A stretch of DNA of 32,000 nucleotides from Synechococcus sp. A15-28 (GCF_014280175.1 NZ_CP047931.1:1560001-1592000); one strand, 5' to 3'. Positions 22,587 to 32,000 are shown, counted from the stretch's first letter. The notes: generated by a model from the letters alone, not told the origin. Made by a program: numbers and translations.

Positions 22587-22603
22587 TTGCAGTGGATCTG
22601 CAA
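22587..22603. promoter_or_regulatory. Palindrome TTGCAG-N5-CTGCAA upstream of the RHH gene (candidate operator)
   Basis: Perfect 6-bp arms, ending 39 nt upstream of the ATG at 22643. Confidence 0.4.
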
Positions 22604-22642
22604 GCCTGCCAAAACGTAATCGAACCCATTTCGGTCCGATTC

Positions 22643-22795
22643 ATGTCCCGCAGATCACTGAGTGTTGAAGGCAAGCGCGAAGTGCGCCTCAGTGCCGACG
22701 TTGATCAGCGCCTGGCTCAGCGCGTCGATGCTGTCGCCAAGGCCACCAACAGCACCCGTGCAGAGGTGGTGCGTGCTGCGCTGCGAAAGCTCTGA
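22643..22795 (+). CDS. Ribbon-helix-helix (CopG/Arc-like) DNA-binding protein
   Basis: The 50-aa version starts at the ATG at 22643; the track ORF starts at a GTG at 22592. KREVRLSADVDQRLAQRVDAVAKATNSTRAEVVRAALRKL has the beta-strand/helix/helix RHH pattern. Confidence 0.65.
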   Translation: MSRRSLSVEGKREVRLSADVDQRLAQRVDAVAKATNSTRAEVVRAALRKL

Positions 22796-22802
22796 CAGAG
22801 AA

Positions 22803-22837
22803 AGACCCCTTAGCGGATGCAACCGCTTGAGGGGTCT
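22803..22837 (+). terminator. Long GC-rich hairpin after the RHH gene
   Basis: AGACCCCT-TAGCGG-atgcaa-CCGCTT-g-AGGGGTCT, about 13 paired positions. No U-tail. Confidence 0.4.
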
Positions 22838-22866
22838 GTGCGTTCGAACAATTTCTCGTCTTAATT

Positions 22867-25284
22867 GTGACCACCACCAGGCCAGTAGATGGCCCCGCAG
22901 GGACCATCTACGAGTTCTCCCCACACCAACGAGTATTTCGCGATCCAGAGACCTCTGAGCTGCTCACAGAGCACGCTGACACCACCAAAAAGGGTTTTGG
23001 TAAGACCAGGTTCCTCAAAGGTCCAGGCCCTAATGGTTGGCCGATCTTCAATTTTGAAGGCGTCTCCACCTATCTGGAGGAGTTACGGAGCCTTGGAGAC
23101 CCTGACCCTGACTTTCGATGTGTCTACGAATTTCCTGATCTCATCGACGCACAGGCTGCGGTTGAGATCCGGCAGCAAAACGCCTTCTGCCAGCCGCACC
23201 ATGCTCAATCCCATCAGGAAATGGTGCTGCGATACCAAGACCTCAGATATCGAGGTGCATGGTGCTGTTATTACATCACTCCTGATCGTCCCGATGAGGA
23301 AGAAAAGGCTCTCCGCCATCAAAAGGCGGCAATGGAAGGCGGGCTGCTGCTTCTGATCGTTAAAAGCCACCAAGAGCCGTTATTTGTGGTTAAGGCAGAC
23401 AAATGCCGGTGGTTAGGCGTTGATCAAAACCCATTTTTCAGAGGTCAGATCGGACGGATCTACCCCCGCGATCGCGGCCGATACATGACCGAGCTGTATC
23501 ACCTCTGCGACTATTCCCTGCTTAGCGATCCTGAGTTTCAGCAGGCCTCTCTACTTGATGACGATGACCGCGAAACGCTCCTGCTGAGGGGTGCATCTCA
23601 CCCTGAGCAAACGGATGAATACTGGCTTCGCAAACGCTGGGCTGAGCCAACAGTCGCCTACTGGAACACTGAGCGCTTACTACAACGCGGCAATTTCCTG
23701 ACAGAGGCTCTTAGCACCCAAATCAGGGCCAATCACTCTGGCCCTTCGAAGTGGGACATCTTCACTGGCACTCATTGGCAGGAGCAGAACACCCACGATG
23801 TGGTGAACGCTCTCCAAGAGGAGTTTTACGTTCGCAACGAGTGGAGCAGTCGCGATCTTCGTGACCTCAGCAGCGACCGTTCACAACTACGTCGTGGCGT
23901 TGCCAGCGCTATTCCCAAGCCGAGCCGCAGGTTGCTGCCATTCCTGAACACCTGTCTCGATCTCGACAGCAGGGAGTGCATCAAGCACTCACCAAACAAT
24001 GGCAACCGTTTTGTTCTGCGCCTGAACTACGAGCCAGGAGATCGCGAACCGAAAAAGATCAAAGCCTTCCTTCTGGATCGTCTTGGTGATCCTGAGCTGG
24101 TTGAGATGTATCGGGCCTTTGTTTGGCATTGCCTGACTGGACGAAGCCTGAAGGCATTTCTGGAGATCACTGGCCCAGCCCACACCGGCAAAACAGTGCT
24201 GACGAATCTGATCATTGCCATCGTCGGCGTCATCAACACCGTCAGTTGTGATCTGAGCCAGCTCGAAGATTCCAAGAGTCGTTTTGAGAGCCATCGCCTC
24301 TCTGGCAAAAAGCTGGCTGTCTTCAGCGAATCACAGGACTACAAGGGCACAGGGGAAATGCTCAAAGCCCTCACAGGTCGCGACCGCATCCGCGCAGAGA
24401 AAAAGAACAGCAGCGAAGACTGTGACTTCACCTATGGGGGTGTTGTCGTCCTCACCGGCAATAGCTCGGTGAATTTCAAGGATGCCTCTGCTGCAATCAA
24501 CAATCGGCGCCGCAGCTTGTTCGTTGAAAAGGTCATCGACTTCAAGGATGAGCGGGTGATGTGCGAAGACGACGGAGAAGGCAACTGGCGCGGTGAGCTG
24601 GTGCCAGAGCTGTCAACGATGGTGAATTGGGTTCTGGATATGGATCCGGCTGATGCCATTAGGGCAATGAGCCGCAACCTGATATCAGAGACTCGGCGTA
24701 ATGCAGCCAAGCAATCACTGCTCGACTCCAACCCTCTCGCTGCGTGGGCAAACGAGCGCTTGGTTTACGACTCCATGCTCAAGTCGGACGGCAAGCCATT
24801 GCATGCCCAAGGCGTTGGAAACCTCAAATCCGATCCTCAAACCCACCTCCTAACCAACTACCGGAGCTGGCTTGAGGCCAATGAAACTGGCGAGGCTCTC
24901 ACCACCAAGACGTTCAAAAGGGCGCTGGTGGAGATGCTGCAAGGCATCGGCATCCCATTGCCACCAGGACCGCTGGATAAGGGTCAGTACCGCATCGATG
25001 GCAAAGGCAGCGTGGTGCCGTTCCTCCGCTTTCGTCGTGCTGACGATGCTGCTGACCATCCAGGGGTGATTGATGCAGCTTTCAACGTGCAAACGGTTCG
25101 CGAACGATTCGCAAACGCCAAGACCCCAGTAGCAAACGGATCAAACGGATCAAACGGTTCTGAAGAGGTTTCTGCTCATAGAGGTTCAGAACTTTTCCAA
25201 AACACCCACCAAGTGGGGGGAACATATGCCTGGGACCAGGAATCTGACTTTTCTCCAGACACTGGTGATGGTGAAGGCGGCTAA
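22867..25284 (+). CDS. P4/D5-family primase-helicase (SF3 NTPase) with an unassigned ~400-aa N-terminal region
   Basis: 805 aa, GTG start. Walker A ITGPAHTGKT (24172-24195), Walker B-like KKLAVFSES, LKALTGRDRIRAEKK...VVVLTGNS, as in the phage/plasmid primase P4-family C-terminal domain. Confidence 0.85.
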   Translation: MTTTRPVDGPAGTIYEFSPHQRVFRDPETSELLTEHADTTKKGFGKTRFLKGPGPNGWPIFNFEGVSTYLEELRSLGDPDPDFRCVYEFPDLIDAQAAVEIRQQNAFCQPHHAQSHQEMVLRYQDLRYRGAWCCYYITPDRPDEEEKALRHQKAAMEGGLLLLIVKSHQEPLFVVKADKCRWLGVDQNPFFRGQIGRIYPRDRGRYMTELYHLCDYSLLSDPEFQQASLLDDDDRETLLLRGASHPEQTDEYWLRKRWAEPTVAYWNTERLLQRGNFLTEALSTQIRANHSGPSKWDIFTGTHWQEQNTHDVVNALQEEFYVRNEWSSRDLRDLSSDRSQLRRGVASAIPKPSRRLLPFLNTCLDLDSRECIKHSPNNGNRFVLRLNYEPGDREPKKIKAFLLDRLGDPELVEMYRAFVWHCLTGRSLKAFLEITGPAHTGKTVLTNLIIAIVGVINTVSCDLSQLEDSKSRFESHRLSGKKLAVFSESQDYKGTGEMLKALTGRDRIRAEKKNSSEDCDFTYGGVVVLTGNSSVNFKDASAAINNRRRSLFVEKVIDFKDERVMCEDDGEGNWRGELVPELSTMVNWVLDMDPADAIRAMSRNLISETRRNAAKQSLLDSNPLAAWANERLVYDSMLKSDGKPLHAQGVGNLKSDPQTHLLTNYRSWLEANETGEALTTKTFKRALVEMLQGIGIPLPPGPLDKGQYRIDGKGSVVPFLRFRRADDAADHPGVIDAAFNVQTVRERFANAKTPVANGSNGSNGSEEVSAHRGSELFQNTHQVGGTYAWDQESDFSPDTGDGEGG
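25090..25157 (+). repeat. Five copies of CAAACG[G/C], the last three as a 9-bp tandem, inside the 3' end of the primase-helicase gene
   Basis: Copies start at 25090, 25112 (variant), 25133, 25142 and 25151. The tandem encodes NGSNGSNGS. Confidence 0.8.
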
Positions 25285-25286
25285 AC

Positions 25287-25354
25287 CCGTTTGAACCGTT
25301 TGTTGAGTAGGGAAAAGGGTTCTCAGCCGCAGGAACCCGTTTGGCAACCGTTTG
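25287..25354 (+). repeat. Four copies of CCGTTTG (consensus AACCGTTTG) in two pairs; reverse complement of the 25090-25157 repeats
   Basis: Copies start at 25287, 25296, 25337 and 25348, immediately after the primase-helicase stop and 117-184 nt upstream of the kinase-WYL ATG. Confidence 0.8.
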
Positions 25355-25470
25355 GCTCAGCTCATGACGTGGAGGCTGACTAATGCAACATCAGTTGCCT
25401 TGGTTATTCGCAGCAAGGACAAGCCATTTTTTTGCTGCATGCTCAGGATGCAGACATCTTGCATTTATTC

Positions 25471-27528
25471 ATGGCTGCCGCCCTGCGCTGCCATCTGCTG
25501 ATTGGACCGCCAGCCAGCGGGAAGACCACCATTGCGACGCTTCTTGCGCCGCTGCTGGATGCGGAGCTGCTCTCCACGGATCGGATCCGTGATGAACTCT
25601 ATGGCGACCCGATGATCCAGGGCCACTGGCATGAGGTGGAGGATCGGCTACACGCGGAGATTCAGGCGAGCGTGGCGGCAGGGCGATCGGTGTTGATCGA
25701 TGCCACCCATGCTCAGAGGCCCTGGCGTTTGGCGCTCACCCAGCGGCTGGAGTTGGACAGGCCGGTGGAGTGGATCGGTTGGTGGATGCGCACCCCACTT
25801 GAGGTGTGCCTGGAGTGGAACAAGCGGCGCGAGCGCCAGGTGCCCGAGCTGGTGGTCCAGCAATTTGCAGCAGCCTTGAACGACCGCGACTTTCAACCCT
25901 CTCGCAGTGAAGGCTTTGCGGTTCTGGTGGATTACAACCCCGCTGCAGACGGTGATCCAGCCAAGGAGCTTGCTGCAGAAATCTCGCGGCTCAATAAGCG
26001 CATCTCAGCTGCCCGCAATCGCGAGCAGGCCAAGGAGCTCCACTGCTACTCACGATTGTTGGACCTGGAGCGACTGCTCCATCTGCTGCAACTTCTCAGC
26101 CGCTATCCGGGTCTTAGCGCTGGCGATGTCACCACCCGAGCAGAGCTGGAGGCAATCTGCAATCCACTGCCGGAAGGGGCGATGGCCCAACGGGCTGCGG
26201 CCTACCTCTCTCGCCTGCGCGGCGAGTGCTATTGCGATGTGGATGCCCTGGAGGCAGATCTCCTTTGGCTCCAGAGCCAGGGTTTTCTCGATGCCGCGCC
26301 AACGCAACAACCCATTGAGCCACCCCCTGCCCCAGAAAACCTGGGTGGGCTGAACCTGGGCGGCTGGCCTCCGATGGCCGACCGAAGCGTGTTTATTCGG
26401 GTCTTCAGCCTGCTGCGCTATCTGTTGCATCACCCCTTTAATTGCGAGAAGGGAGTGCGACTGCAGGAGCACCTGATCAGCCAGCTCGGCGGTGTCTACA
26501 TGCCAGGTGAAGCCGGCACCCTGCGCAAGGACGTGGAGCGCATACTCACCCCCTATGGCTTTCGCACCCGCAACGACAATGTGCGCCACGGCTACGGCCT
26601 AGGTACTGCGGTGCTCTCGGCAGCGCGGCTGCGGGAAGTGCACCAGGTGGTGAGCCAGGCAGTCTCCCGTCTTGGTGATCCCACAGCTCAGGACTTGCTC
26701 GCAGAGCTCGATGAGCGACTTCGGTGGGGAGGTGTACTGAGGGAGCACGAGCCACCGGTAAGGGTCTTTGCGAATCGTTCGATCGTGCACCCCGATCTGG
26801 TGCGCCGAGATTCTCTTGCGGTACCAGCACAGGCAGAAAAACTTGAGGCTGCAATCTCATTGCGTCAGAGGGTGTTGTTGGAGCGCTTCTCCGATGCGGC
26901 CACATTCGGAGAGGAATCAAGAGAACCGATCCACGTATGGCCCATACAACTGCTCTTTCACAACATCGGTTGGTATTTGGCTTTTGAGGATGACGCTGTC
27001 GGCTACGAACGGGGCCTGATCCGTACAGAACGTTTGGACCGGCTGGCACTACGTCAGGTTGAAAGCGGCTTCCAACGCACGCCGGAGCAACGTGTTGCTG
27101 GAGTCCTTCGGCTTACTCGTCTGATGGAACTCAGCGGTGGCATCTACCTCGGCAAGGACGCTGCTTCGCAAGAACAACTAAGCACTGCACAACCAGACGA
27201 ACTAGCCAAACTACTAATCACCGTCCGCTTTCGTTGTACATCTCGGGCTTACAATTTCTTGAGAGAAGGTTTGCAGCGATATCCACTCAATCAGATACGA
27301 ATGTCGAAGCCGTTAACCAGTGATCAATGGTGCCACAGATCTAAAGCACCGCTTGTACTGACTCCATTTCCAGACGATAGCCACCCTTACCCTATGGAAC
27401 TAGACCTCCCGCCATGGACAGTTGCACGAGATGTCGACTTTCGCCGCTGGATTCTTGGCTGGGGCTCTGAAATTATTGTTGAGACTCCCACAGGCTTTGC
27501 TCAGGAAATTCGCTTGCAAGTGCAATGA
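25471..27528 (+). CDS. Fusion protein: P-loop kinase (AAA_33/PNK-like), HTH region and WYL domain
   Basis: The track start at 25432 is a TTG, so the ATG at 25471 is preferred. LLIGPPASGKTT (25504-25530) plus LIDATHAQRPWR kinase-like core. ERLLHLLQLLSRYPGLSAGDV is HTH-like. IHVWPIQLLFHNIGWYLAFED...IRTERLDRL is the WYL signature (GWYLAF at 26968-26985). Confidence 0.8.
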   Translation: MAAALRCHLLIGPPASGKTTIATLLAPLLDAELLSTDRIRDELYGDPMIQGHWHEVEDRLHAEIQASVAAGRSVLIDATHAQRPWRLALTQRLELDRPVEWIGWWMRTPLEVCLEWNKRRERQVPELVVQQFAAALNDRDFQPSRSEGFAVLVDYNPAADGDPAKELAAEISRLNKRISAARNREQAKELHCYSRLLDLERLLHLLQLLSRYPGLSAGDVTTRAELEAICNPLPEGAMAQRAAAYLSRLRGECYCDVDALEADLLWLQSQGFLDAAPTQQPIEPPPAPENLGGLNLGGWPPMADRSVFIRVFSLLRYLLHHPFNCEKGVRLQEHLISQLGGVYMPGEAGTLRKDVERILTPYGFRTRNDNVRHGYGLGTAVLSAARLREVHQVVSQAVSRLGDPTAQDLLAELDERLRWGGVLREHEPPVRVFANRSIVHPDLVRRDSLAVPAQAEKLEAAISLRQRVLLERFSDAATFGEESREPIHVWPIQLLFHNIGWYLAFEDDAVGYERGLIRTERLDRLALRQVESGFQRTPEQRVAGVLRLTRLMELSGGIYLGKDAASQEQLSTAQPDELAKLLITVRFRCTSRAYNFLREGLQRYPLNQIRMSKPLTSDQWCHRSKAPLVLTPFPDDSHPYPMELDLPPWTVARDVDFRRWILGWGSEIIVETPTGFAQEIRLQVQ

Positions 27529-27569: not shown

Positions 27570-28712
27570 TTAAACGAAACGATTCAAGACCTGGTCGATG
27601 GGCTTGGCAAACTCTTTCTCTTGTTCCTGCAGAGCGAAGCTGCTGTTGGCTTGCAGGATACGTGAATTGAAACCCGGCAGACCTTTTACCTCAGCGTAAC
27701 TCTTGCAACCTGATCTGCAAATCTCAGCAATTATGGGCTTTTGCAGGATATTGTGCCAGTGCTCAAATCCTTGCACCTGCGAAGACATAGACTTGTAAAT
27801 TTGACCTCTTAATTCGAGAAGCTTACTAAATATTTGATCTTTGCTGAGCGGCGCTCCAATTGTCTTCGTAGAACTACTCTTTTGAATGCTGTCACTTTCA
27901 CGAATTAACTGCTCTTGACCATGTCCAGCCATAGAAGAATTCACTACGGCTGCCATGACTTCTCTCCTGGCTTGCTCTACACTTACGAGCAACTCTTCTT
28001 TTATTTCCTGAATCTGATCAAGCATTCGATCTTCGCTCTCTTCGATTACTCCTGACAATATTTCCATATGGATCCTGCCTTCGGCGTCGCCTCTATCGTC
28101 TTCAGATGTTGATTCAGTTATAGGATGTGGCTTTAAATTGCAAAGTTCTCGGTACCGATTTAGCTCTTCTTGTGAAGCGGTAATTATCCGAAAGCTGAAC
28201 CTCGAAACGTCTTCACTGTTAGACAGGGCGATCGTTTCAACGAGAGGCGCCAGTAACTTGCTGAGCTCAAATACTCTTAGGGCGATTGCTGCATACAAAT
28301 TGTTGAATTGCTCTTCTGCCTCACCTTGCGGCACGAGGTGGCCGGCCGAGTCCCTTGCAGCCCGCAGAGAAATGGCTAAGCCTCTAAATTCCGAAAAATA
28401 AAATGCAAGCGCCTTCCGCTTATGAACCTCTAGACCTAGGCGATTCTCCCTCCCTGCTGAGCGTATATTTTTAATTAAATTAGTGGTACGCTCGTTGCAA
28501 TTTTTGTCTTCATAGTATATCTCCCACCATCCTGCAGTGCTGCTCAGATCAAGGTCTTTGTTGGACGTGACGGCCTCTAGGATGTATTGAATATCATCAA
28601 GCTTGTCAGCGTATACGGTGTCTGTCTTTAAGCAGATATAACTTAAAAAACAAAGCCACTTATAAACTTCCCCAATCTGTCGTCCGAGGATAGGATTAAT
28701 GATGTGATTCAT
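27570..28712 (-). CDS. Hypothetical 380-aa protein with an N-terminal HEPN-type Rx4H motif, acidic coiled middle and possible HRDC/HhH-like C-terminus
   Basis: Clean ORF in markedly AT-richer DNA. LRAARDSAGH (R120-H125, nt 28338-28355) is followed by an EAEEQFNNLYAAIALRVFEL helix, as in DUF4145/Abi-type HEPN domains. The C-terminal similarity to HRDC is weak and by eye only. Confidence 0.7.
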   Translation of the reverse strand: MNHIINPILGRQIGEVYKWLCFLSYICLKTDTVYADKLDDIQYILEAVTSNKDLDLSSTAGWWEIYYEDKNCNERTTNLIKNIRSAGRENRLGLEVHKRKALAFYFSEFRGLAISLRAARDSAGHLVPQGEAEEQFNNLYAAIALRVFELSKLLAPLVETIALSNSEDVSRFSFRIITASQEELNRYRELCNLKPHPITESTSEDDRGDAEGRIHMEILSGVIEESEDRMLDQIQEIKEELLVSVEQARREVMAAVVNSSMAGHGQEQLIRESDSIQKSSSTKTIGAPLSKDQIFSKLLELRGQIYKSMSSQVQGFEHWHNILQKPIIAEICRSGCKSYAEVKGLPGFNSRILQANSSFALQEQEKEFAKPIDQVLNRFV

Positions 28713-28774: not shown

Positions 28775-29461
28775 CTATTGTGACTCAATCCCTTTCAGGT
28801 TGAAACTCTTGTCTGTATCTGATTGAAGTGTTTTTGCTGCACTACAAATGCTTCCTGCGAGCAACCAGGCCTGCGCTCCTGGAATTACAGACATAGCAAT
28901 GCTTATAGCGAGCGATGCTGACATTGCTTGTGTCGCAGCGCAGCCTGCATCCTTTAGGGATTGAATAAAACAACCTCGACTATTCAGGGGTGAATTCTTC
29001 ATGCCGCACTCTTGATCACGAAGTATGCTCCAAGAAATTGTTAGCAACACTGCAAGCGCTCCTGCTTCAAGGCAATGTTTGGTAATGTCCGTAGCCACCC
29101 CGGGGGCATGCAGCGCATCAATTCCTCCGTCTAATTGGGCTCGCCCTATGTCGACCGCGCTTATTGGATCGGCGCCTCGACTTCTGTTCCAGCTGGCGGT
29201 TTCAAACTGCCAGCCCTGCTCAGCTGTTCCCCCGTGAGCCTGAGGCCACCAATGGCTGAGGTCCTTGTCAGATAGCCAGCTACGGATCGCTTCTTCAGGT
29301 TTTTGACTGCGTAGTAGTAGCTCTGGCAGCTGGCCCTGTAGTTCGGCGCCATGGGCAGATAAGCGCTCTTTGAGAACCGCTACGGAGCTTGGATCTACAA
29401 ACTGCTCGCACAGGCGCGTGATGAAGCCTGAGGTGAGTCCAGTAGAAAATGGCCTGTTCAT
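28775..29461 (-). CDS. Hypothetical membrane protein (soluble N-terminal half, 2-3 C-terminal TM helices)
   Basis: 228 aa. Hydrophobic GALAVLLTISWSIL and SASLAISIAMSVIPGAQAWLLAGSICSAA. Its start forms an ATGA overlap with the stop of the upstream ORF. Confidence 0.7.
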   Translation of the reverse strand: MNRPFSTGLTSGFITRLCEQFVDPSSVAVLKERLSAHGAELQGQLPELLLRSQKPEEAIRSWLSDKDLSHWWPQAHGGTAEQGWQFETASWNRSRGADPISAVDIGRAQLDGGIDALHAPGVATDITKHCLEAGALAVLLTISWSILRDQECGMKNSPLNSRGCFIQSLKDAGCAATQAMSASLAISIAMSVIPGAQAWLLAGSICSAAKTLQSDTDKSFNLKGIESQ

Positions 29462-29970
29462 GCGGATTGCCTGCTAAGGGCTACTCCACCTAGTAGATGA
29501 TTCAGGTTGACCCCCGCATCAAACGCGGCACTGTGAAGATCCGAGCGTTGTTCCTCGCTGAGTCCGTCCCAGAAGGCATAGGCCAGGTCGATCGATGCCT
29601 TACCGAGGCCAACTACACCGATCAGGCTGAGAGGAAAACCCAACCAGGGGAACACCAGAAGCACCACGCTGAAAACCGCACTTACGGCTGCTCCCTGCTT
29701 AGTGGTTTCCCAGACGCTCGCCACAATTGCCTGAACTTGGGTTCTCCGATCTATCTCGCCGCGCTTGCGCATGGCTTCAGTTCGGAGACCCGTTAGCAAG
29801 GCTTGGTAGATGGCGAACACGAGCATTCCGCCAACGGTGCTTTCGCCAACGAATTCACCACCGGTCAGCGTGCCACGGTTCCCGTTGAGATCGATGGAGG
29901 CCAAGCCGGCCATTGGTGCAATCTCCCAGCCAGCGCGTGGAATCCGGTAGGGGTCGCGTTCTCGGGACAT
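29458..29970 (-). CDS. Hypothetical membrane protein (about 3 TM helices)
   Basis: 170 aa. Hydrophobic VGGMLVFAIYQALLTGL and AAVSAVFSVVLLVFPWLGFPLSLIGVVGLG. No family recognised. Confidence 0.7.
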   Translation of the reverse strand: MSRERDPYRIPRAGWEIAPMAGLASIDLNGNRGTLTGGEFVGESTVGGMLVFAIYQALLTGLRTEAMRKRGEIDRRTQVQAIVASVWETTKQGAAVSAVFSVVLLVFPWLGFPLSLIGVVGLGKASIDLAYAFWDGLSEEQRSDLHSAAFDAGVNLNHLLGGVALSRQSA

Positions 29971-30076
29971 GGTGGTCGTTTCGTCTGGGGAGCTTTTTTA
30001 AGTGTTGCTTGCCCGTAAGCCGATGCTCAGTTCTTCGTGCGAATAACTAATGGATGGTCTGCATCACTCAGTTTTC

Positions 30077-30838
30077 TCAGAGCCAAGAAACCGTGTCTTG
30101 AGTTGGTTCTTCGCTAATGCGGTGAGGGCAGATTTCGGCAAGGCGGCAGAAGCGGCACTCGTTAGTAGATGGGGATGGCTCAGGTTGTAGCCCAACTGTG
30201 AGGCTCAACAAATCTGACAACTGTTGTTGGAATGCCACCCCGGCTTCGGGTGCAGGGATTTCAACTCGATCTCCATTCGCATACACCAATTCACCGCAGG
30301 GTGGATGTTGGACGCCCTCCAGTGCATTGGCATATGGCGCTAAGGCCATATACGTAAGGACTTGGGCACGATCTTTGCCGCGTGGGCGACCTGTTTTTGC
30401 ATCCGAGATAACCCCTGGCATGGAGTCTGTCTCGCTGACCACCACATCACACTGCCCATGGATGGTGACACCGTCCTTGCTACGTAGGCGTAAGGCGTTC
30501 TCCTGCTCAACATGAACGATTCGTCCCTTGTCTGAGTGGGTCCGAGCAACGGCTTGGAGTAGCCGTTCATGCTTGGTCACCCAATCACCCGGGACTCCTG
30601 AAGATTTGGGCGTGCAGTAATTGACCTGAAGGAAGAGATTGAGAAGACAATGCCTTTCGCCTGCCAAGTACGGAGCCAGCCAAGTGACATGGCAATAGCG
30701 CTCTTGACGTTGTTCCAGACTTAATACTTGGGACTTCAATTTTCTGTTTTCGAGGGCCAGGTCAAGATGCCAGCGACTTGTGAAGTCGGAGCTTCTTCTC
30801 GTGCGAACAACGGATTGAGGTCGAGGAATATGCGCCAT
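30077..30838 (-). CDS. Cas4-like PD-(D/E)XK nuclease with a C-terminal Fe-S cysteine cluster
   Basis: 253 aa. GQCDVVVSE...ISDAKTG (D...DxK), RAQVLTYM (QxxxY) and CRFCRLAEIC (CX2CX5C, nt 30128-30157), as in Cas4/AddB-type nucleases. Confidence 0.75.
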   Translation of the reverse strand: MAHIPRPQSVVRTRRSSDFTSRWHLDLALENRKLKSQVLSLEQRQERYCHVTWLAPYLAGERHCLLNLFLQVNYCTPKSSGVPGDWVTKHERLLQAVARTHSDKGRIVHVEQENALRLRSKDGVTIHGQCDVVVSETDSMPGVISDAKTGRPRGKDRAQVLTYMALAPYANALEGVQHPPCGELVYANGDRVEIPAPEAGVAFQQQLSDLLSLTVGLQPEPSPSTNECRFCRLAEICPHRISEEPTQDTVSWL

Positions 30839-30937: not shown

Positions 30938-31135
30938 ATGTTGGTTGAAATCACTTCGGTGGCGCCGGGCTTGAAGAGGTCATTTGCAGCACTGTTTCAA
31001 CCTTCTACTGGTATTGATGAACTGGCTTCAAGGGGCTTTGGGATCGGTCGATGGCGCAGCCTGAGGCATCACCTTGAAGCCGGAACCGTCCTTCAAGGGC
31101 GAGAGCTTCCTTCTGTGATGGCCGCGGCCAGCTAG
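30938..31135 (+). CDS. Small ORF upstream of the PLD gene (hypothetical, or a frameshifted N-terminal piece of it)
   Basis: 65-aa ORF. Its 3' end (31078-31135) overlaps a stretch where the PLD reading frame is also open. Confidence 0.3.
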   Translation: MLVEITSVAPGLKRSFAALFQPSTGIDELASRGFGIGRWRSLRHHLEAGTVLQGRELPSVMAAAS

Positions 31136-31847: not shown

Positions 31848-32000
31848 ATGGAACAAGCGGTTGGATGCGTGTTGTCTTCGCCTGATTGCCCTCTGAACCC
31901 AGTTCGTTGGCTCGCCTATTACCGGGTCAGTACAGATCGCCAGGGAAACTCCGGTCTGGGCCTCGAAGCGCAGCGGGCCAAGGTTGAAGTCATGGCTTCC
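31848..32000 (+). CDS. Serine recombinase (resolvase/invertase-type catalytic N-terminus), truncated by the window edge
   Basis: My own translation: MEQAVGCVLSSPDCPLNPVRWLAYYRVSTDRQGNSGLGLEAQRAKVEVMAS. YxRVSTxxQ with the catalytic Ser, plus GLEAQR, are hallmarks of the family. The frame is open to nt 32000. Confidence 0.75.
   Translation, partial: MEQAVGCVLSSPDCPLNPVRWLAYYRVSTDRQGNSGLGLEAQRAKVEVMAS

Follow-up and report, generated by a model that had tools for sequence, protein, structure and literature searches.

What might a cyanobacterium gain from joining a polynucleotide kinase (PNK)-like enzyme to a transcriptional regulator in a single protein? The question is raised by a gene at positions 25471 to 27528 (plus strand) of a stretch of 32,000 nucleotides (nt) from Synechococcus sp. 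A15-28 (NZ_CP047931.1:1560001-1592000), referred to here as the window. A reading made from the sequence alone had described the product as a PNK/AAA_33-type kinase followed by a helix-turn-helix (HTH), a WYL domain, and a C-terminal extension, and this architecture was borne out by matches to AAA_33, to a PADLOC WYL model, and to WCX, as well as by AlphaFold2 (AF2) modeling with Foldseek. We lean, at slightly better than even confidence, toward the view that the protein, called kinase-WYL below, is a regulator of the PafBC/BrxR class that acts on an adjacent immune module and also bears an active PNK-like 5'-OH kinase, that its family derives from type III-B clustered regularly interspaced short palindromic repeat (CRISPR) loci, and that it has three sites in the window. 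Four rival explanations each fit the evidence less well.

The gene is an uninterrupted open reading frame (ORF) that begins at 25432 (TTG) or 25471 (ATG) and ends at 27528. From the ATG, it encodes 685 amino acids (aa), 100% identical to RefSeq entry WP_186586483.1, "AAA family ATPase" of Synechococcus sp. A15-28. GenBank entry QNI42983.1 takes the TTG start and is named "WYL domain-containing P-loop containing NTP hydrolase." The ATG is the better start, since the N termini of homologs align there and a -10-like hexamer at 25444-25449 falls downstream of the TTG. The gene and the domains of its product, including a winged HTH (wHTH), are as follows.

25471-27528, plus strand: kinase-wHTH-WYL-WCX gene, 685 aa (ORF, AAA_33, PADLOC WYL, PDB profile matches, AF2/Foldseek)
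Residues 1-~185: PNK-like kinase
Residues ~191-360: wHTH region
Residues ~361-450: helical linker
Residues ~451-537: WYL beta-barrel
Residues ~538-685: WCX

A first AF2 model, built from 28 close homologs, gave a predicted local distance difference test (pLDDT) score below 50 in the WYL region. A second, built from an alignment of 110 diverse sequences with identity down to about 28-30%, reached a mean pLDDT of 85.5, exceeded 90 in the kinase domain, and showed a five-stranded barrel at residues 466-535. When the full model was searched with Foldseek, two classes of top match were returned, namely, the kinase domain of Clostridium thermocellum Pnkp (CthPnk; 4gp6) and full-length PafB/PafC (9fnd_X/Y). 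Matches among predicted viral structures were to the kinase domain only and were often phage polynucleotide kinases. As far as sequence and predicted structure go, an N-terminal PNK/AAA_33-type kinase is genuinely fused to a PafBC-like wHTH-WYL-WCX module.

The kinase domain was recognized by every type of search. Pfam AAA_33 (PF13671) matched residues 8-135 at 69.8 bits against a cutoff of 27 (E=3.8e-19), and a family profile searched against the PDB found CthPnk (4gp6/4gp7; E=2e-9) above the tRNA kinase PSTK. Foldseek superposed the domain on 4gp6 with a template modeling (TM) score of 0.74-0.76, a root mean square deviation of ~3 Å, and E=3e-9, and the PHROG match was "polynucleotide kinase" (E=7e-10). 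Bacterial Pnkp and PSTK also ranked at the top of the NCBIfam scan, with scores far under the equivalog cutoffs. The Pnkp-Hen1 RNA repair model TIGR04075 scored 29.9 bits against a cutoff of 750 and covered the kinase part alone; neither a phosphatase domain in the protein nor a Hen1-like neighbor was found, the latter among the family loci examined. The catalytic set comprises an intact Walker A motif of the form GxxxxGK[ST] (G12..G17-K18-T19), D37-x-x-R40, a Walker-B-like D77, and lid R120 (and R122), and in the 110-sequence alignment G17, K18, D37, R40, D77, R86, N117, and R120 are invariant or nearly so. An HMMER alignment pairs D37/R40, D77, and R120/R122 with catalytic residues of CthPnk, which we take to be D38/R41, D78, and R120/R123. 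The kinase fold of the sequence-only reading is real and its P-loop is not degenerate. Because G17, K18, D37, R40, D77, R86, and R120 are kept across 110 sequences, the domain is very likely an active enzyme, and by sequence and model it most resembles polynucleotide and tRNA 5'-kinases.

The C-terminal half was matched by the PADLOC CRISPR-associated WYL model (residues 451-681; E=1.2e-11). Pfam WCX matched 11 of 12 family members (best E=5.5e-6) and Pfam WYL matched 8 of the 12, so that the WYL beta-barrel is supported by the PADLOC model, by the Pfam matches, and by the barrel in the AF2 model. An alignment of the C-terminal part of the family alone matched PafC and PafBC in the PDB (PafC WCX, E=0.003). 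The AF2 model aligned over ~400 columns to PafB/PafC of the PafBC-RNA polymerase complex (9fnd_X/Y; E=2-4e-8), and through this alignment a wHTH and a C-terminal WCX were found in one chain. W501-Y502-L503, R521, and R524 are invariant or nearly so in the 110 sequences.

An exhaustive search of 1.84 billion cluster representatives at E<=1e-30 returned 167 clusters (50% identity) of relatives, mostly of 670-740 aa, that align end to end. Named members are found among picocyanobacteria (Synechococcus, Cyanobium, and Vulcanococcus) and among Nostocales/Oscillatoriales (Nostoc, Anabaena, Calothrix, Scytonema, Cylindrospermum, Microcoleus, Moorena, and others), and the family is apparently restricted to cyanobacteria. 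The sequence-only reading had not recognized the architecture; these clusters hold hundreds of cyanobacterial proteins, already labeled "WYL domain-containing protein," "putative kinase," "predicted kinase," or "YafY" in databases. The picocyanobacterial sequences separate cleanly from the others into two clades; identity is at least 45% inside either clade and 28-36% across the two. Divergence between the clades is similar in every domain, and thus the whole fusion is old. Pattern scans of genomes and metagenomes were swamped by the generic P-loop pattern, returning 19 and 34 relatives, mostly kinase-only, and yield no prevalence statistics. The C-terminal module had no match in a scan of viral contigs. 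The family is widespread and uncharacterized and belongs with the WYL defense regulators.

Outside the picocyanobacteria, the genomic context is uniform. A type III-B module (cmr2/cas10, cmr3-6, and a sixth gene) lies within 10 kb of the kinase-WYL gene in 7 of 7 independent loci, in the following arrangements.

Cylindrospermum PCC 7417, the NIES-4074 plasmid, and Calothrix PCC 6303: kinase-WYL gene immediately divergent from cas10
Microcoleus: at the end of the cmr operon, after a gap of 90 nt
Rivularia: co-directional and upstream of cmr2
Anabaena PCC 7108: in the same locus, not adjoining cmr2, ~3 kb from cas10
Tolypothrix-type genome: in the same locus, with cmr2 ~9 kb downstream

A CRISPR array with a related repeat of 36-37 nt directly follows the kinase-WYL gene in 5 of 5 loci examined. 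In filamentous cyanobacteria, the family looks like a built-in component of type III-B (Cmr) loci. The window itself holds no cas10, cmr, cas1, or cas2 homolog and no CRISPR array, and there is no Rfam match between 22 and 32 kb. Within the visible 32 kb, the window gene is not a type III accessory gene, and its counterparts in the other clade are. Since CRISPR is absent from the 32 kb and relatives in the other clade are CRISPR linked, we regard the window gene as related to a family of accessory genes.

The GGDD cyclase motif is present in all six Cas10 proteins, none of which has the N-terminal HD motif, and the annotation of the type III-B loci shows no CARF or SAVED effector within ±10 kb. 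These features would suit an enzyme-regulator of the NadR kind, in which the kinase would act on a nucleoside, a nucleotide, or a cyclic-oligoadenylate product (5'-OH A2>p) and the same metabolite, bound at the WYL domain or the kinase site, would co-regulate DNA binding. Csx3 ring nucleases fused to a kinase/transferase domain also occur in cyanobacterial type III-B loci (PMC7371418), and Foldseek matched the kinase domain to gluconate, shikimate, and adenylylsulfate (APS) kinases as well. However, polynucleotide and tRNA kinases outrank the small-molecule kinases in every search, and picocyanobacterial members keep all of the invariant residues with no type III system nearby. We consider such an enzyme-regulator improbable.

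Three further features of the type III-B loci were observed. The Cas10 proteins of six loci (L024-L027, L064, and L065) occur in short (521-576 aa) and long (1043-1124 aa) forms, and the sixth operon gene encodes 517-542 aa with no family match. In locus L062, a 500-aa "CRISPR-associated protein" of family TIGR03985 (12209-13711) is encoded directly downstream of the kinase-WYL gene. It was rejected as a member of the same family because only a WCX-like C-terminal tail is in common; its sequence suggests a second WYL/WCX-type accessory protein in one locus.

The two clades share a DNA element. We counted 6-mers in the 200 nt upstream of family genes, separately for each clade, and TGCGAA/TTCGCA was the top 6-mer in both (10/13 picocyanobacterial loci against a background of 0.9; 6/7 others against 0.56). 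Its consensus is GTYATTCGCA, extended to cGTCATTCGCAyGAG in Nostocales and GTYYTTCGCAG in picocyanobacteria. The degenerate 10-mer has 52 matches in 753 kb, 17 of which fall in the 5.25 kb (0.7%) that immediately precede family genes. At 235-285 nt before the cas10/cmr2 start codon there are additional exact copies, which point toward it (loci L025, L026, L027/L065, and L062), and in L027, L065, and L002 the element lies in the intergenic region common to the kinase-WYL gene and its divergent neighbor. A palindromic operator was rejected, since the element is asymmetric and is always oriented toward the gene. Picocyanobacterial sites also precede neighboring genes, namely, those for a STAND-TPR protein (L001), a LysR protein (L002), and a GHKL-like protein (L007), and in L030 the element precedes a downstream string of small ORFs with a T5orf172-like gene.

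The element also stands at a fixed distance from a promoter-like hexamer. A -10-like TAnnnT (mostly TA[A/G]GAT) is found at exactly +32/33 in 7 of 13 Nostocales/Oscillatoriales sites (binomial P=2e-7). In ~750 kb, the composite element-N29-33-AACACT has just three copies. One precedes cas10 (L025), one precedes cmr2 (L062), and the third precedes the operon in the window that begins with a 170-aa protein. PafBC responds to single-stranded DNA, by which it is activated, and works at a promoter element that is orientation specific. The putative kinase-WYL element is likewise asymmetric and at a fixed distance from the -10 box, and by analogy with PafBC this phasing suggests direct interplay with RNA polymerase. 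It differs in standing ~32 nt upstream of the -10 box rather than directly beside it.

These observations bear on the idea that kinase-WYL is an RNA/DNA end-healing enzyme whose wHTH-WYL-WCX part merely tethers it to single-stranded nucleic acid and has no transcriptional role. Such an enzyme would fit the association with RNA-cleaving type III-B systems, and its kinase would be expected to be closest to CthPnk, PSTK, and phage PNKs, as it is. WYL domains can serve as accessory modules that bind single-stranded nucleic acid (bioRxiv 10.1101/163188), and the WYL domains of PIF1 helicase and Cas13d-WYL1 offer precedents for a tether. Against this, the entire PafBC-like layout, including the wHTH, is conserved; an orientation-specific element with fixed -10 spacing accompanies the gene across clades; and no 3'-phosphatase or ligase partner was found in any family locus examined. 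End healing with no role in transcription is, in our judgment, unlikely.

The element was then sought in the window with a 24-nt matrix derived from the 13 Nostocales/Oscillatoriales sites only, a noncircular test in which the whole window was scanned on both strands. The three best matches (20.7, 19.3, and 14.7) all lie inside the genomic island that holds the kinase-WYL gene. The 95th percentiles of the null were 17.6 for the best match and 13.5 for the second best. The three sites are as follows.

25398-25421, plus strand: site A, core GTTATTCGCA at 25403-25412; third-best match, 14.7; 58 nt before the kinase-WYL ATG
30029-30052, minus strand: site B, core GTTATTCGCA at 30038-30047; best match, 20.7; 67 nt before the ATG (29970) of the 170-aa protein gene
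30793-30816, minus strand: site C, core GTTGTTCGCA at 30802-30811; second-best match, 19.3

The exact 10-mer core GTTATTCGCA occurs only twice in the window. Site A is followed by a -10-like cAGGAT at 25444-25449, +31 from the site, and site B is followed by AACACT at +31 (GCAACACTT from +29). Site C lies 62 nt before an in-frame TTG (30739) of a Cas4-like gene; this TTG, rather than ATG 30838, may be the true start, giving a product of 220 aa. From their sequence, the three sites are most likely operators of the kinase-WYL protein. Sites B and C are on the strand of the following genes.

30077-30838, minus strand: Cas4-like PD-(D/E)XK nuclease gene (Pfam PDDEXK_1, 1.1e-8), first gene of the minus-strand block
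29458-29970, minus strand: gene for a 170-aa protein with a strong transmembrane-like segment and no family match
28775-29461, minus strand: gene for a 228-aa protein with C-terminal transmembrane-like segments and no family match
27570-28712, minus strand: 380-aa "HEPN-motif" gene (R120-D-S-x-x-H125), convergent with the kinase-WYL gene and 41 nt from its stop codon

PADLOC and TIGR Cas4 models matched the Cas4-like gene at 2e-10 to 9e-10, under the TIGR cutoff, and the 228-aa ORF overlaps the 170-aa ORF by 4 nt. Together, the Cas4-like, 170-aa, 228-aa, and 380-aa genes form a cassette that is the probable regulon of the kinase-WYL gene, as judged by its sites.

We propose that kinase-WYL is a ligand-responsive transcription factor that would bind the GTYATTCGCA element. 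In filamentous cyanobacteria, it would control its own promoter and the cmr operon, with the element ~32 nt upstream of the -10 box at both. In the window, it would control itself and the minus-strand cassette (Cas4-like protein, two membrane proteins, and HEPN-motif protein) through the three sites. The WYL domain would sense single-stranded nucleic acid or the oligonucleotide products of infection or of an RNA-cleaving effector. The kinase would phosphorylate the 5'-OH ends of such RNA or oligonucleotides, and this phosphorylation might process or extinguish the signal or might heal or mark the cleaved RNA. Type III-B Cmr complexes cleave RNA to products that carry 5'-OH ends, and HEPN RNases likewise leave 5'-OH ends. 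We infer 5'-OH RNA or oligonucleotide ends as the kinase substrate because Cmr, the ancestral partner, and possibly the HEPN-motif neighbor would generate them. The protein might act either as an activator or as a repressor.

Several points weigh against the regulatory reading and keep our confidence in it modest. The element was discovered in the same upstream regions that were later used for the enrichment count, so that its independent tests are replication across clades and the Nostocales-only matrix. Binding of kinase-WYL to the element is deduced from motif conservation, and the element might instead serve as a promoter element or as the site of a different factor. Among the window sites, the score of site A (14.7) does not reach the 95th percentile of the null for the best match (17.6), and site C falls within the 5' part of the Cas4-like ORF when that ORF is taken from the automatically called ATG 30838. 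The window protein by itself falls under the Pfam thresholds for WYL and WCX (WCX, 15.7 bits against a cutoff of 23.9). In the kinase domain, the position of the third CthPnk lid arginine is occupied by W116; and since the fold is also that of gluconate, shikimate, and APS kinases, the polynucleotide substrate predicted from sequence and model is putative. We also compared 65 loci with family members by BLAST, using as queries the primase, the 380-aa, 228-aa, and 170-aa proteins, the Cas4-like protein, DrmC, and the ribbon-helix-helix (RHH) protein of the window, together with 22 homologs of the 380-aa protein. No homolog of these window neighbors was found in any of the 65 loci. Finally, the view is limited to 32 kb, and cas genes may lie elsewhere in A15-28.

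The neighboring 380-aa gene had been central to the sequence-only reading, which placed the kinase-WYL gene 41 nt from a convergent gene with an HEPN motif. Both the gap and the motif are correct: the protein has an Rx4-6H HEPN motif, R120-D-S-x-x-H125 (SLR[AS]ARDSxxH), which does not vary among 15 homologs with identities as low as 35%. Its family comprises 22 clusters (90% identity), all "hypothetical." The protein has no Pfam, NCBIfam, PADLOC, PHROG, or PDB-sequence match and no match in the viral-contig scan, and by its motif alone the HEPN fold is putative. A conserved C-terminal region of the family, FEHWHNILQKPIIAEICR, was also noted.

If the two neighbors were an antitoxin-like pair, kinase-WYL would be a dedicated antidote or healer for the adjoining HEPN-motif RNase. 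The convergent genes 41 nt apart, the invariant RDSxxH, and the operator-like site that heads the string containing the 380-aa gene are what such a pair would show, and one homolog of the 380-aa protein and one of kinase-WYL appear to share a single contig of 31,473 bp. However, a 380-aa homolog is present in 0 of the 65 family loci, so that the expectation of a conserved adjacency to the HEPN gene failed in the neighborhood search. In addition, the 380-aa family has 22 clusters at 90% identity, compared with 167 for kinase-WYL even at the coarser 50%; the dominant partner of the kinase-WYL family is type III-B Cmr; and no profile match backs the putative HEPN fold. A dedicated antidote is thus doubtful indeed in our estimation. 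The earlier speculation that the kinase might heal, sense, or antagonize 5'-OH RNA remains plausible, because the element is shared by the promoters of the kinase-WYL gene and the HEPN-containing string and because the Cmr partner cleaves RNA; as an HEPN-healing account, it is speculative and the gene order is not conserved.

The kinase-WYL gene lies in an island that extends from ~22400 to the window edge at 32000, directly after the DCC1-like core gene. The core genes (PriA, a group-1-like sigma factor, HemC, Ppa, M32 peptidase, and DCC1) end at ~22.3 kb. No tRNA or integrase gene was found within the window, and the far boundary of the island and the rest of a DISARM system lie beyond it. 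The remaining genes and repeats of the island are the following.

22592-22795, plus strand: CopG-type RHH gene (Pfam RHH_1), part of an island entry module at 22592-25284
22867-25284, plus strand: P4-family primase/DUF5906 gene (Pfam DUF5906; TIGR01613 primase_Cterm; PHROG DNA primase, 2.6e-32)
25090-25354: six copies of the iteron-like repeat A[A/C]CCGTTTG, straddling the primase stop codon
31156-31794: DISARM DrmC gene (PADLOC, E=1.8e-135)

A housekeeping regulator or kinase of picocyanobacteria that merely stands beside the island would account for strong purifying conservation and for a GC content (0.588) nearer that of the core (0.622) than that of its neighbors (0.446 in the 380-aa gene, with a dip to 0.45-0.48 at 27-29 kb). 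It would also recall a stand-alone kinase paralog that is a syntenic core gene. Yet the kinase-WYL gene is inside the island, between the P4-type primase and DrmC, and its neighborhood is different in every genome sampled. Few named marine Synechococcus strains carry it, it is plasmid borne in some members and present in two copies in some genomes, and the non-picocyanobacterial members are CRISPR linked. A housekeeping role seems very improbable; the context is defense related, in line with the sequence-only reading. The fusion is an accessory gene distinct from the stand-alone core kinase paralog.

That paralog, of ~190 aa, is 45-50% identical to the kinase domain, has the same P-loop and D/R motifs, and keeps its core synteny in picocyanobacteria. 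It was seen in two marine Synechococcus loci (L014, 9953-10531, with WIGWW; L015, 9941-10516, with WTGWW), where it adjoins a 148-aa gene; in L015 it is near psbA.

The other picocyanobacterial loci present a different neighborhood each time. Among the neighbors are these.

1562-aa DUF4062-AAA_16-TPR STAND protein
GmrSD with an 1816-aa DEAD/MZB helicase
AcrVA2-like gene among small unknown genes

In picocyanobacteria, the kinase-WYL genes are mobile-island cargo in variable islands and have no cas genes near them. The Cyanobium-type loci (L001, L002/L003, L004, L009, L010, and L023) carry a LysR-type (HTH_1) gene upstream of kinase-WYL. In most, it is divergent from and adjoins the kinase-WYL gene, the intergenic region between the two holds copies of the element arranged head to head, and the pair may form a two-gene module.

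The sequence-only reading had nominated 25287-25354 as the DNA target of the WYL protein. This assignment did not hold, since A[A/C]CCGTTTG is absent upstream of all 23 other family members. The repeat occurs six times in the window (0.33 expected), with two inverted copies inside the 3' end of the primase gene and four direct copies at 25285-25354 after its stop codon. Because the repeats cluster at the primase 3' end and are absent from other family loci, they more likely belong to the primase element, to which they were reassigned; the region at 25090-25354 may be the replication origin of this P4-type primase element. Short tandem repeats, CAAACGGAT and GCAAACGATTC, lie beside them at 25089-25157.

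Comparison with known systems places kinase-WYL between regulators and enzymes. PafBC (6sj9, 7p5x, and 9fnd), a transcriptional activator of mycobacteria and other actinobacteria, has the same wHTH-WYL beta-barrel-WCX layout and is the best solved structural match for residues ~190-685. Unlike PafBC, kinase-WYL is a single chain with a kinase added at its N terminus and ~180 more residues in the HTH/linker, the identity is only ~15%, and the context is a CRISPR/defense island rather than a DNA damage regulon. BrxR, CapW, and sll7009 are likewise HTH-WYL genes beside, and often divergent from, an immune operon that they presumably control, but their products are ~300 aa with no enzymatic domain. 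In Sll7009, cyanobacteria already provide an example of a CRISPR system regulated by a WYL protein (PMC4012209). The WYL fusion partners listed by Makarova et al. 2014 (Cas3, an exoRNase, Mrr, HNH, an SF1 helicase, the AbiGII nucleotidyltransferase, BRCT, and TerB) include no P-loop kinase (PMC4012209). Enzymes of the CthPnk and T4 PNK type share the P-loop Lys/Ser-Thr, the Asp-x-x-Arg general base, the Asp of DxT, and two of three lid arginines; kinase-WYL differs from CthPnk in having W116 for the third and in lacking a phosphatase/adenylyltransferase domain and a Hen1 or ligase neighbor. By domain description, Csx3' is similar as a cyanobacterial type III-B accessory protein with a signal-binding domain and a P-loop kinase-like domain (PMC7371418), but its sensor is Csx3/CARF-like rather than WYL and it has no HTH.

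Two accessory clusters of Shah et al. 2018 are relevant (PMC6546367). Cluster 35 is "Csx3-AAA." Cluster 36, "WYL," is an HTH-WYL cluster of 11 members, associated with cyanobacterial type III systems and including Nos7107_4284; it may be the kinase-WYL family. They differ in that the paper is silent on a kinase domain and assigns the cluster mainly to subtype III-D, and the kinase-WYL loci are Cmr (III-B). In the literature searched, coverage of which was incomplete, we found no description of the kinase-WYL fusion, of its operator, or of its presence in CRISPR-less picocyanobacteria. The present analysis adds that the family originates from type III-B loci, predicts an operator with three sites in the window, and nominates a probable regulon.

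PafBC, BrxR, CapW, DriD, and other WYL regulators are coming to be seen as common switches of damage and defense responses in bacteria, and the ligands of most of the defense-linked ones are still sought. A WYL switch joined to an intact PNK-type enzyme hints at the chemistry of the signal, namely, 5'-OH nucleic acid ends or oligonucleotides, and the family gives an experimentally tractable handle on it. More tentatively, and at a probability well below that given to the regulatory reading, kinase-WYL could be an immune signal processor, in which the WYL domain would sense and the kinase would convert or extinguish 5'-OH RNA or linear oligoadenylates while the PafBC-like module would set transcription of the immune operon. 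The source of the signal would then be the firing type III-B complex or, in CRISPR-less picocyanobacteria, an HEPN-type effector. The result would be a self-resetting feedback loop between RNA cleavage products and the expression of immunity, and such a loop could pass, along with its operator, from CRISPR-Cas into cassettes unrelated to it.

In cyanobacterial type III-B loci with cyclase-competent Cas10, the family seems to be an integral part that has been overlooked. The gene and the element persist in CRISPR-less marine Synechococcus, and the predicted operator could be used to nominate new regulated cargo. The Cas4-like, 170-aa, 228-aa, and 380-aa genes are a candidate new defense cassette in an ecologically major phototroph.

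Some loci showed irregularities of assembly or reading frame. The DrmC ORF of the window covers only positions 50-261 of the best PADLOC model, and a 65-aa ORF (30938-31135) lies just upstream in another frame; the DrmC N terminus may be truncated or frameshifted, or its start may differ from that of the model. Picocyanobacterial-type kinase-WYL genes were found in two metagenome-assembled genomes labeled Bradyrhizobium ivorense (L004) and Bordetella parapertussis (L005), both of which look misbinned; L004 is near-identical to a Cyanobium-type locus, and its LysR gene is 95% identical to the one there. In an uncultured cyanobacterium (L011, 1641-4148), the kinase-WYL gene is split into ORFs of 479 and 352 aa beside an IS5-like transposase gene, probably as a pseudogene or through a sequencing frameshift, and copies of the cis-element flank the split gene.

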